Shown piece after piece: positions 63,001-64,000 of a stretch of 64,000 nucleotides of DNA. Numbering within the stretch: the first letter of the stretch is position 1; each line of letters begins with the position of its first letter. This stretch comes from Escherichia coli (GTDB lineage: Bacteria; Pseudomonadota; Gammaproteobacteria; Enterobacterales; Enterobacteriaceae), in assembly GCF_013315695.1 (NCBI RefSeq), contig NZ_CP054353.1; one strand, written 5' to 3'. The position numbers were made by a program.

Positions 63001-64000
63001 GGCTGGCGGATGAATTAATCAATGCGTCGGATGCCATCAGTGTGATGGCCACGGCGCTGAACAGTAATGTCAGAGGAGGCACTATGCCGCAATTAACTGC
63101 AACGGAAGCCGCCGTGCAGGAGAACCAGCGAGTGATGGGGATCCTGACATGCCAGGAAGCGAAAGGACGTGAACAGCTTGCCACGATGCTGGCAGGGCAA
63201 CAGGGCATGAGCGTTGAACAGGCCCGGGCGATTCTGGCCGCGGCGGCACCGCAGCAGCCGGTGGCATCCGCACAGAGTGAAGCCGATCGCATTATGGCGT
63301 GTGAAGAAGCGAACGGTCGTGAACAACTGGCGGCAACGCTGGCGGCGATGCCGGAGATGACGGTGGAAAAAGCCCGCCCGATCCTGGCTGCTTCACCGCA
63401 GGCGAATGCCGGACCATCACTCCGTGATCAGATCATGGCACTGGATGAGGCAAAAGGGGCTGAGGCGCAGGCTGAACAGCTGGCTGCCTGCCCGGGAATG
63501 ACTGTGGAGAGCGCCCGGGCTGTGCTGGCTGCGGGATCAGGTAAGGCAGAACCGGTCTCTGCATCCACAACCGCCCTGTTTGAACATTTCATGGCGAACC
63601 ATTCACCGGCTGCGGTCCAGGGGGGCGTGTCACAGGCGTCAGAAGACGGTGATGCGGACGTGAAAATGCTCATGGCCATGCCATGAAGTCAGTGCTGAAC
63701 ATCAATACGAGGTTTTTACAATATGGTGACGAAAACCATCACTGAACAGCGTGCGGAAGTACGTATTTTTGCCGGTAATGATCCGGCTCACACCGCCACA
63801 GGCAGCAGCGGGATTTCCTCGGCAACACCGGCACTGACACCCCTGATGCTGGATGGGGCCACCGGGAAACTGGTGGTCTGGGACGGACAGAAAGCCGGTA
63901 GTGCGGTTGGCATACTGGTACTGCCGCTTGAAGGCACAGAGGAGGTGCTGACCTATTACAAGTCGGGGACCTTTGCGACGGAGGCAATCCGCTGGCCTGA

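Follow-up and report, generated by a model that had tools for sequence, protein, structure and literature searches.

The window, a stretch of 64,000 nucleotides (nt) of Escherichia coli contig NZ_CP054353.1 (assembly GCF_013315695.1), carries close to its end a prophage gene for a prohead protease fused to a scaffold domain, and this scaffold domain contains a repeat of three units. These are probably three old, diverged tandem copies of a module of 41 amino acids (aa), here called the Tri unit, which are proposed to act as protein-contact elements. A preliminary description of the same DNA had pointed to imperfect tandem repeats at this place and had supposed them prone to slippage; the repetition was borne out, and the slippage was not. 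Positions of all features are given in Table 1.

Table 1. Features of the protease-scaffold gene, in window coordinates.
Feature	Position	Strand	Details
Tri unit 1	63126..63248	+	aa 316-356, QRVMGILTCQEAKGREQLATMLAGQQGMSVEQARAILAAAA; profile 72.1 bits
Tri unit 2	63276..63398	+	aa 366-406, SEADRIMACEEANGREQLAATLAAMPEMTVEKARPILAASP; profile 69.3 bits
Tri unit 3	63417..63539	+	aa 413-453, SLRDQIMALDEAKGAEAQAEQLAACPGMTVESARAVLAAGS; profile 65.3 bits
C-terminal scaffold tail, 48 aa	63540..63683	+	predicted helix ALFEHFMANH, end motif LMAMP
Nested in-frame scaffold gene, 200 aa (603 nt)	63084..63686	+	phage 21 gp6 homologue; C-terminal part homologous to lambda Nu3
Shine-Dalgarno sequence GAGGAGG of the nested scaffold gene	63073..63079	+	read in the sequence
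Prohead protease-scaffold fusion gene	62181..63686	+	1506-nt open reading frame (ORF), 501 aa, GTG start; homologue of lambda gpC / phage 21 gp5
S49 serine peptidase domain (aa 146-293)	62616..63059	+	Pfam PF01343 Peptidase_S49, E = 3.8e-35, 121.6 bits against a cut-off of 24.9

The units, each 41 aa long, were 46–56% identical to one another as protein and recurred at spacings of 150 and 141 nt, with unrelated linkers of 9 and 6 codons between them. Pairwise local alignment with BLOSUM62 gave scores of 101, 85 and 97, while composition-preserving shuffles scored 26 +/- 5 (z = 15, 11 and 14) and none of 2000 shuffles reached the observed score. Because the shuffles never attained these values, the repeat is not a product of Ala/Gln-rich composition. 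The peptides quoted in the preliminary description were found in frame (EAKGREQLATMLAG at 63156–63197, EANGREQLAATLAA at 63306–63347 and EAKGAEAQAEQLAA at 63447–63488), where they form the cores of the 41-aa units; its claim of imperfect repeats therefore holds at the protein level. Nineteen units from eight proteins could be aligned without gaps, giving the consensus ..IlA..EAKGRE.LA..LA..PGMTVEQA...LAAAP. Eight columns of this alignment were invariant (A15, G17, E19, A22, L25, A26, M31 and A36); besides one Gly and one Glu, these positions are mainly small or hydrophobic, as expected of a folded core. In unit 3, Ala replaces the Arg of the KGRE motif that is almost invariant in the other units. 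Searched with a profile built from this alignment, the window yielded exactly three copies, at 65–72 bits each; the corresponding three were recovered from phage 21, although its sequence had been left out of the alignment.

At the DNA level the repetition was weak. In-register nucleotide identity between the units was 0.60, 0.53 and 0.57; it reached 0.59–0.76 at the first and second codon positions and was near random at the third (0.34–0.39), and the longest exact run common to the units of the window was 8 nt. Tandem Repeats Finder returned no array for 62900–63750 even at a score of 30. A seed-based repeat finder likewise gave no array for this interval, returning only short two-copy fragments, some of which were out of register. 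Among the out-of-register matches were those at 63320 and 63473, encoding REQLAA and AEQLAA at a spacing of 153 nt. Head-to-tail copies of high nucleotide identity, as in a variable-number tandem repeat (VNTR) or contingency locus, were absent from this region. The matching nucleotide repeats of the preliminary description were thus only partly recovered, since its motif 'ga-ggncgtgaacagctngcn' fits units 1 and 2, while unit 3 reads GAGGCAAAAGGGGCTGAGGCGCAGGCT at that place. Given a strong repeat in the protein and a weak one in the DNA, selection acts on the protein.

Comparison with related phages showed that the copies are old. Unit 1 of the window was 76% identical to unit 1 of Salmonella phage Gifsy-1, 83% to that of a four-unit lineage represented by E. 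coli VG35A2 and 80% to that of protein P0094; for units 2 and 3 the identity to the corresponding units of Gifsy-1 was 80% and 61%, respectively. Units at the same position in Gifsy-1 are therefore closer (61–80%) than the neighbours of each unit within its own protein, and the triplication is therefore older than the divergence of the phage 21 lineage of E. coli from the Gifsy-1 lineage of Salmonella, each copy having kept its own identity since. Relative to four distant relatives, the units were 51–83% identical, while the two linkers showed only 0–33% identity and had taken insertions and deletions.

The repeat had been recorded before. In the feature table of GenBank entry M81255.1 ('Bacteriophage 21 head gene operon'), which is the source of the prior description, gene 6 has three repeat_region features named 'Tri1 box', 'Tri box' and 'Tri3 box', each with the comment 'function unknown; putative'. 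Transferred to the window with an offset of 61583 and no indels, these boxes fall at 63151–63254 (Tri1), 63291–63401 (Tri) and 63432–63545 (Tri3). They measure 104–114 nt, while the units defined here measure 123 nt and reach slightly further in the N-terminal direction; positions of the units by profile were the same in the window and in phage 21. By this correspondence, the units of the window are the annotated Tri boxes of phage 21, and the repeat was already known.

The units lie within a second, nested reading frame. The sequence GAGGAGG-cact-ATG occurs at 63073–63086, in frame with the longer ORF, and its ATG (63084–63086) is 903 nt into that ORF. The matching site of phage 21 is annotated as the ribosome-binding site and coding sequence of gene 6 in both M81255.1 and OL657228.1, and the latter labels gp6 a 'scaffolding protein'. 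The predicted scaffold protein of the window is 96% identical to phage 21 gp6 (8 substitutions in 200 residues) and 56.5% identical to its counterpart in Gifsy-1. It matched PHROG 8399 'head scaffolding protein' (E = 2e-34) and PHROG 8940 'capsid assembly protein' (E = 5e-30), three times each, and one unit together with the tail aligned with the C-terminus of lambda Nu3. With the S49 domain upstream, these features agree with the placement of the repeat in the Nu3-like scaffold part of a gpC homologue, as the preliminary description had it. We infer that a separate scaffold of 200 aa is expressed in the window prophage from 63084, and by homology the gene is a nested protease/scaffold gene of the lambda gpC/Nu3 and phage 21 gp5/gp6 type.

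A purine-rich site resembling GAGGAGG is kept in Gifsy-1, lambda and VG35A2, and weakly in Aeromonas phage phiARM81ld. In lambda, a Shine-Dalgarno sequence and ATG aligned with window position 63084 occur at nt 5342 (locus L003, position 2543; caGGAGGgcgaATG), and the pair is also found in Gifsy-1 and VG35A2; phiARM81ld has an ATG at the aligned position with a weak match upstream. The annotated start of lambda nu3 (nt 5132) is preceded by a far weaker upstream sequence, and the window has an Ile codon at that place. Because the Shine-Dalgarno sequence and ATG at lambda nt 5342 are conserved and the sequence upstream of nt 5132 is weak, a shorter lambda product of 131 aa, starting at nt 5342, may be worth checking.

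Beyond the third unit the scaffold ends in a tail that was 92% identical to phage 21 and 23–40% identical to the four distant relatives compared. Its motifs F..FM and LL/LM..P are common to Gifsy-1 and lambda. In the AlphaFold2 model, helices were predicted in the tail at gp6 residues 161–173 and 191–196, with low confidence as measured by the predicted local distance difference test (pLDDT).

The scaffold region was found in 1869 of 5426 complete E. coli genomes. Its length was compared in 60 of 1874 E. coli records, evenly spread, which constitute a sample and not a full census; 58 of the 60 had an ungapped span of 603 nt, one had a deletion of 57 nt and one was truncated, with identity between 90 and 100%. 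Beyond these two records, length polymorphism among close relatives, as expected of a VNTR, was absent from this 60-record sample, and since 58 of 60 records keep the length of 603 nt, the locus of the window is not slippage-prone. Deletions do occur, affecting unit 2. In E. coli BP0076 (locus L007, WP_001253887.1, 482 aa) the second half of unit 2 has been deleted, and record H163 is alike, judged by its span. The BP0076 event is an in-frame deletion of 57 nt, equivalent to window 63333–63389, and at least two complete genomes carry it; it is flanked by imperfect direct repeats of 8 nt, CTGGCGGC and CTGGCTGC, with a junction of CTGGCG|GC vs CTGGCT|GC. Among metagenomic proteins, P0018 is without exactly unit 2, and P0015 is without unit 2 by a different junction. 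In P0100 a larger deletion has taken out unit 1 and half of unit 2, together with the last part of the protease domain.

Copy number varied across the wider family. Lambda gpC has a single unit (aa 359–399, 74 bits), and its Thr/Ser/Ala-rich linker gave the unit profile no remnant of any others; in phage phiARM81ld there is likewise one unit. A search of 1.84 billion cluster representatives with the unit profile, at a threshold of E <= 1e-3, identified 1077 proteins. Of the 150 best matches, approximately 124 had one copy, approximately 21 had two and five had three, although many of the multi-copy entries were fragments of the phage 21 group. Copies among the best 150 typically lay 80–100 aa from the C-terminus of proteins of 400–550 aa, or in stand-alone proteins of 100–230 aa. 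Independent cases with two copies were seen in the unrelated-looking proteins P0211, P0131 and P0177. One further protein, P0120 (844 aa), consists of a tape-measure-like N-terminal part joined to a complete lambda gpC sequence, and looks like a chimaera of gene-calling or assembly rather than a real fusion.

The highest copy number belonged to the lineage of E. coli VG35A2 (NZ_CP128590.1, WP_047656443.1, 538 aa), which has four units and was present in 96 of the 5426 complete E. coli genomes. Units 2–4 of VG35A2 were 88–90% identical as protein and 84–88% as DNA, with exact runs of up to 31 nt, and Tandem Repeats Finder reported 3.6 copies of a 138-nt period at 84% matches (locus L006, 2168–2668). 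The near-identity of these units indicates recent duplication, or else homogenisation through concerted evolution, in the four-unit lineage. When repeat number was compared across homologues, therefore, lambda and phiARM81ld had one unit, phage 21, Gifsy-1 and the window three, VG35A2 four, and rare deletion variants 2 or 2.5, with length near-constant in the E. coli sample. The expectation of the preliminary description that the repeats vary between related phages applies at long distance and to rare deletions, and not to frequent slippage.

The fold of the unit was predicted from models. AlphaFold2, run on a single unit with the alignment of 19 unit sequences, gave a pLDDT of 91.8 and a predicted template modelling score (pTM) of 0.69, with helices at residues 2–10, 19–26 and 33–42 and a short turn at the EAKG motif. 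In a model of the whole 200-aa protein the units had pLDDT of 70–85 (unit 1 approximately 81–85), and the linkers and most of the tail were below 60. From these models, it is most likely that each unit folds alone as a small three-helix bundle, the linkers making the scaffold resemble beads on a string. A Foldseek search of BFVD gave phage S49 prohead proteases as its top three matches (TM 0.80–0.89, probability 0.98–1.0), which came from Salmonella phage 37, Synechococcus virus S-ESS1 and an uncultured siphovirus. Among solved structures, Foldseek gave no match with E below 1, and sequence searches of the PDB with the protein and with the unit profile returned nothing meaningful. A Pfam scan of the scaffold found no family, only a sub-threshold match to HHH, and an NCBIfam scan gave nothing for either scaffold or unit. 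Comparison with known three-helix interaction domains (protein A B domain, UBA/CUE, RuvA domain III) and with the P22-type coat-binding helix-turn-helix, in which the query was the predicted model, gave no Foldseek match with E below 1 and no match to PDB sequences.

The proposed role of the units takes lambda as its model. Nu3 has been reported to interact with itself and with C, B and E, and as a scaffold it is essential, incorporation of the portal depending on it (PMC3224144, PMC10695390); it is present in proheads and is removed by the protease before DNA packaging (PMC3224144). By analogy, the gp6-like protein of the window would do the same job as lambda Nu3, co-assembling with the portal and major capsid protein and then being degraded. 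The module lies in a scaffold domain common to the prohead protease and the predicted nested 200-aa scaffold, and the common C-terminus would carry the protease into the prohead. The units themselves would be contact elements for self-association and/or for the capsid protein or portal, and three copies would offer more valency or reach than the one of lambda. The repeat, its conservation at the protein level, its age, its distribution and its range of copy number were observed directly; the fold comes from the models, and a role in binding is, above all, the putative element. Conserved units, freely changing linkers, position-specific orthology and small or hydrophobic invariant positions together support folding, partner-contacting domains in preference to spacers or a DNA element.

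Two points call for caution. Contact with the capsid could equally well be made by the conserved C-terminal tail, with its F..FM helix and LL..P end. In addition, a published report, going by its title, is said to describe isolated lambda gpNu3 as intrinsically disordered, which cautions against a stable fold in solution. A wider proposition can be advanced tentatively, as possible but not quite an even prospect: that the Tri unit is an uncurated, widespread, self-folding three-helix domain, lacking a Pfam or NCBIfam family and a solved structure, and a possible docking element of scaffolds of this kind that binds capsid protein, portal or itself, with a copy number of 1 to 4 tuning valency. 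More than 1000 protein clusters contain the unit; they comprise S49 prohead proteases and stand-alone scaffolds, one of them from a cyanophage.

The closest competitor to a contact role, though an unlikely one, holds that the units are mainly passive spacers, such that the total scaffold length (approximately 200 aa) or its flexibility is what matters, and that the duplications supply a length which lambda gains by starting Nu3 further upstream. Annotated lambda Nu3 does have 201 aa, made up of one unit and approximately 120 aa upstream of it, while phage 21 gp6 and the window protein reach 200 aa with three units, and the linkers are unconstrained as a spacer would allow. Spacers would not be expected, however, to retain 51–83% identity per unit or position-specific orthology across the compared phages, which come from different hosts and samples, or to keep eight invariant columns. 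Moreover, the scaffold is longer, at 236 aa, where there are four units, and the equality of length rests on the annotated lambda start, which is less certain given the conserved Shine-Dalgarno sequence and ATG further downstream. It is much less probable again, and very improbable overall, that the repeats are a slippage-prone, hypervariable tandem repeat of DNA whose copy number changes often between close prophages. Such instability would accord with a copy number of 1 to 4 across the wider family and with rare deletions of unit 2, one of which has an imperfect 8-nt microhomology at its junction; in the four-unit lineage, where DNA identity, run length and the 138-nt period are of the appropriate kind, recombination or homogenisation is plausible. 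In the window, however, there was no Tandem Repeats Finder array, the copies were 53–60% identical, shared exact runs of at most 8 nt and are interrupted by unrelated linkers. Their one-to-one orthology with Gifsy-1 and the ungapped span in 58 of 60 sampled records are likewise at odds with the susceptibility to slippage that had been suggested.

Two explanations remain. That the similarity is a by-product of a low-complexity, Ala/Gln/Glu-rich helix without true duplication is scarcely credible: the region is indeed rich in A, Q, E and L, and the out-of-register REQLAA and AEQLAA show that helical periodicity can produce chance matches, yet such a compositional artefact is refuted by the shuffles (0/2000), by the ungapped 41-aa register in 19 units from eight proteins and by single-copy homologues in more than 1000 clusters. 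There is next to no chance, the least of any explanation considered, that the repeated nucleotides are cis-acting sites, such as CII-binding sites, or RNA elements. OL657228.1 annotates two matches to a CII pattern in gene 6, and both are in the window; however, only one of the two sites lies inside a unit, and conservation follows the codon pattern. These 'transcription factor CII' features map to window 63089–63102 and 63323–63336 on the minus strand. The pattern itself (TTGYN6TTGY) occurred 12 times in the window, compared with 13.5 occurrences expected by chance, and since this is no more than chance frequency, the annotated CII sites within gene 6 are probably meaningless and were rejected as candidate elements.

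The surrounding genes are those of a phage head cluster. The start of the protease-scaffold ORF overlaps the end of a lambda-type portal ORF (60599–62191), and a D-like decoration ORF begins downstream at 63724. The 501-aa protein matched PHROG 53 'head maturation protease' (E = 8e-229), and its protease part gave a match to TIGR00706 SppA_dom (E = 1.1e-31) that was under the curated cut-off. The S49 domain occupies the N-terminal two thirds of the ORF and the repeats its last 600 bases; assignment to S49 is by Pfam domain match. DNA that is 100% identical occurs in E. coli NMBU_W05E18, where the gene, flanked by those for the portal and head decoration proteins, bears the annotation 'S49 family peptidase'. 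The annotated order there is terminase small and large subunits, head-tail joining protein, portal, S49 peptidase, head decoration protein, major capsid protein and tail genes; the gene of the window has the same position in the head cluster, following the portal gene and preceding the decoration and major capsid genes. Identical DNA and this order of annotated head genes indicate that the head module in the window is that of a lambda-like prophage and belongs to the phage 21 type.

An 11-bp deletion at 59898/59899 of the window interrupts the gene for the large terminase subunit, leaving ORFs at 58438–60096 and 59876–60412. The reference for this deletion is the otherwise near-identical prophage of NMBU_W05E18 (locus L008, 3708–3718), in which the gene is intact at 1929 nt. 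The prophage is probably defective in packaging, or else there is a sequence error at this place.

As a discovery the repeat has little value, as it was recorded in the entry for the phage 21 head operon and the gene is present in about a third of complete E. coli genomes, which places it among the commonest prophage genes. What is added is descriptive, namely a conserved module that is uncurated in the protein-family libraries searched and for which a three-helix bundle is predicted at high confidence. Lambda-like head modules have from one to four units, which means that copy number, and with it the putative valency of the scaffold, has been changed by domain duplication. If the unit is a docking domain, the near-identical copies of the four-unit lineage would represent a recent, possibly adaptive, expansion, and recent repeat dynamics are better studied in that lineage than in the window. 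For annotation, the appropriate label is a nested scaffold gene with three Tri units and not an unstable repeat.

Several known systems resemble the protein of the window in function. In phage P2 gpO and herpesvirus UL26/UL26.5, the protease is directed to the procapsid by a C-terminal scaffold domain that is produced as a separate protein too; the C-terminal helix-turn-helix of P22 gp8 is a helical coat-binding scaffold domain, and small helical modules mediate capsid contacts. The resemblance of all three to the window protein is functional only, with no sequence similarity or significant structural similarity found. The comparison draws in part on the text of PMC8508860.

Among relatives by sequence, the four-unit E. 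coli variant has the same architecture as the gene of the window and a first unit 83% identical to unit 1, but differs in its number of units, in the near-identity of units 2–4 and in its scaffold of 236 aa. Lambda C and Nu3 (NC_001416, 4418–5737 and 5132–5737) share with the window an S49 domain, a scaffold domain with an in-frame start of its own inside the longer gene, the same 41-aa unit, a similar C-terminal tail and a location between portal gene B and decoration gene D. Shaw and Murialdo, in 1980, are said to have described the in-frame overlap of lambda C and Nu3, and gpC was reportedly identified as the lambda prohead protease by Medina et al. in 2010. Lambda departs from the window in having one unit rather than three, a gpC of 439 rather than 501 aa, and an annotated Nu3 start that is 210 nt further upstream, inside the protease domain. 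The nearest match is with genes 5 and 6 of phage 21 (M81255.1, OL657228.1), which have the same order of terminase, head-tail joining protein, portal, protease/scaffold, decoration and major capsid genes, proteins of 501 and 200 aa, the same internal ribosome-binding site and ATG, and the same three repeat positions; the window differs from phage 21 by the eight substitutions among 200 scaffold residues and in being an E. coli prophage with an 11-bp deletion in its terminase large-subunit gene.

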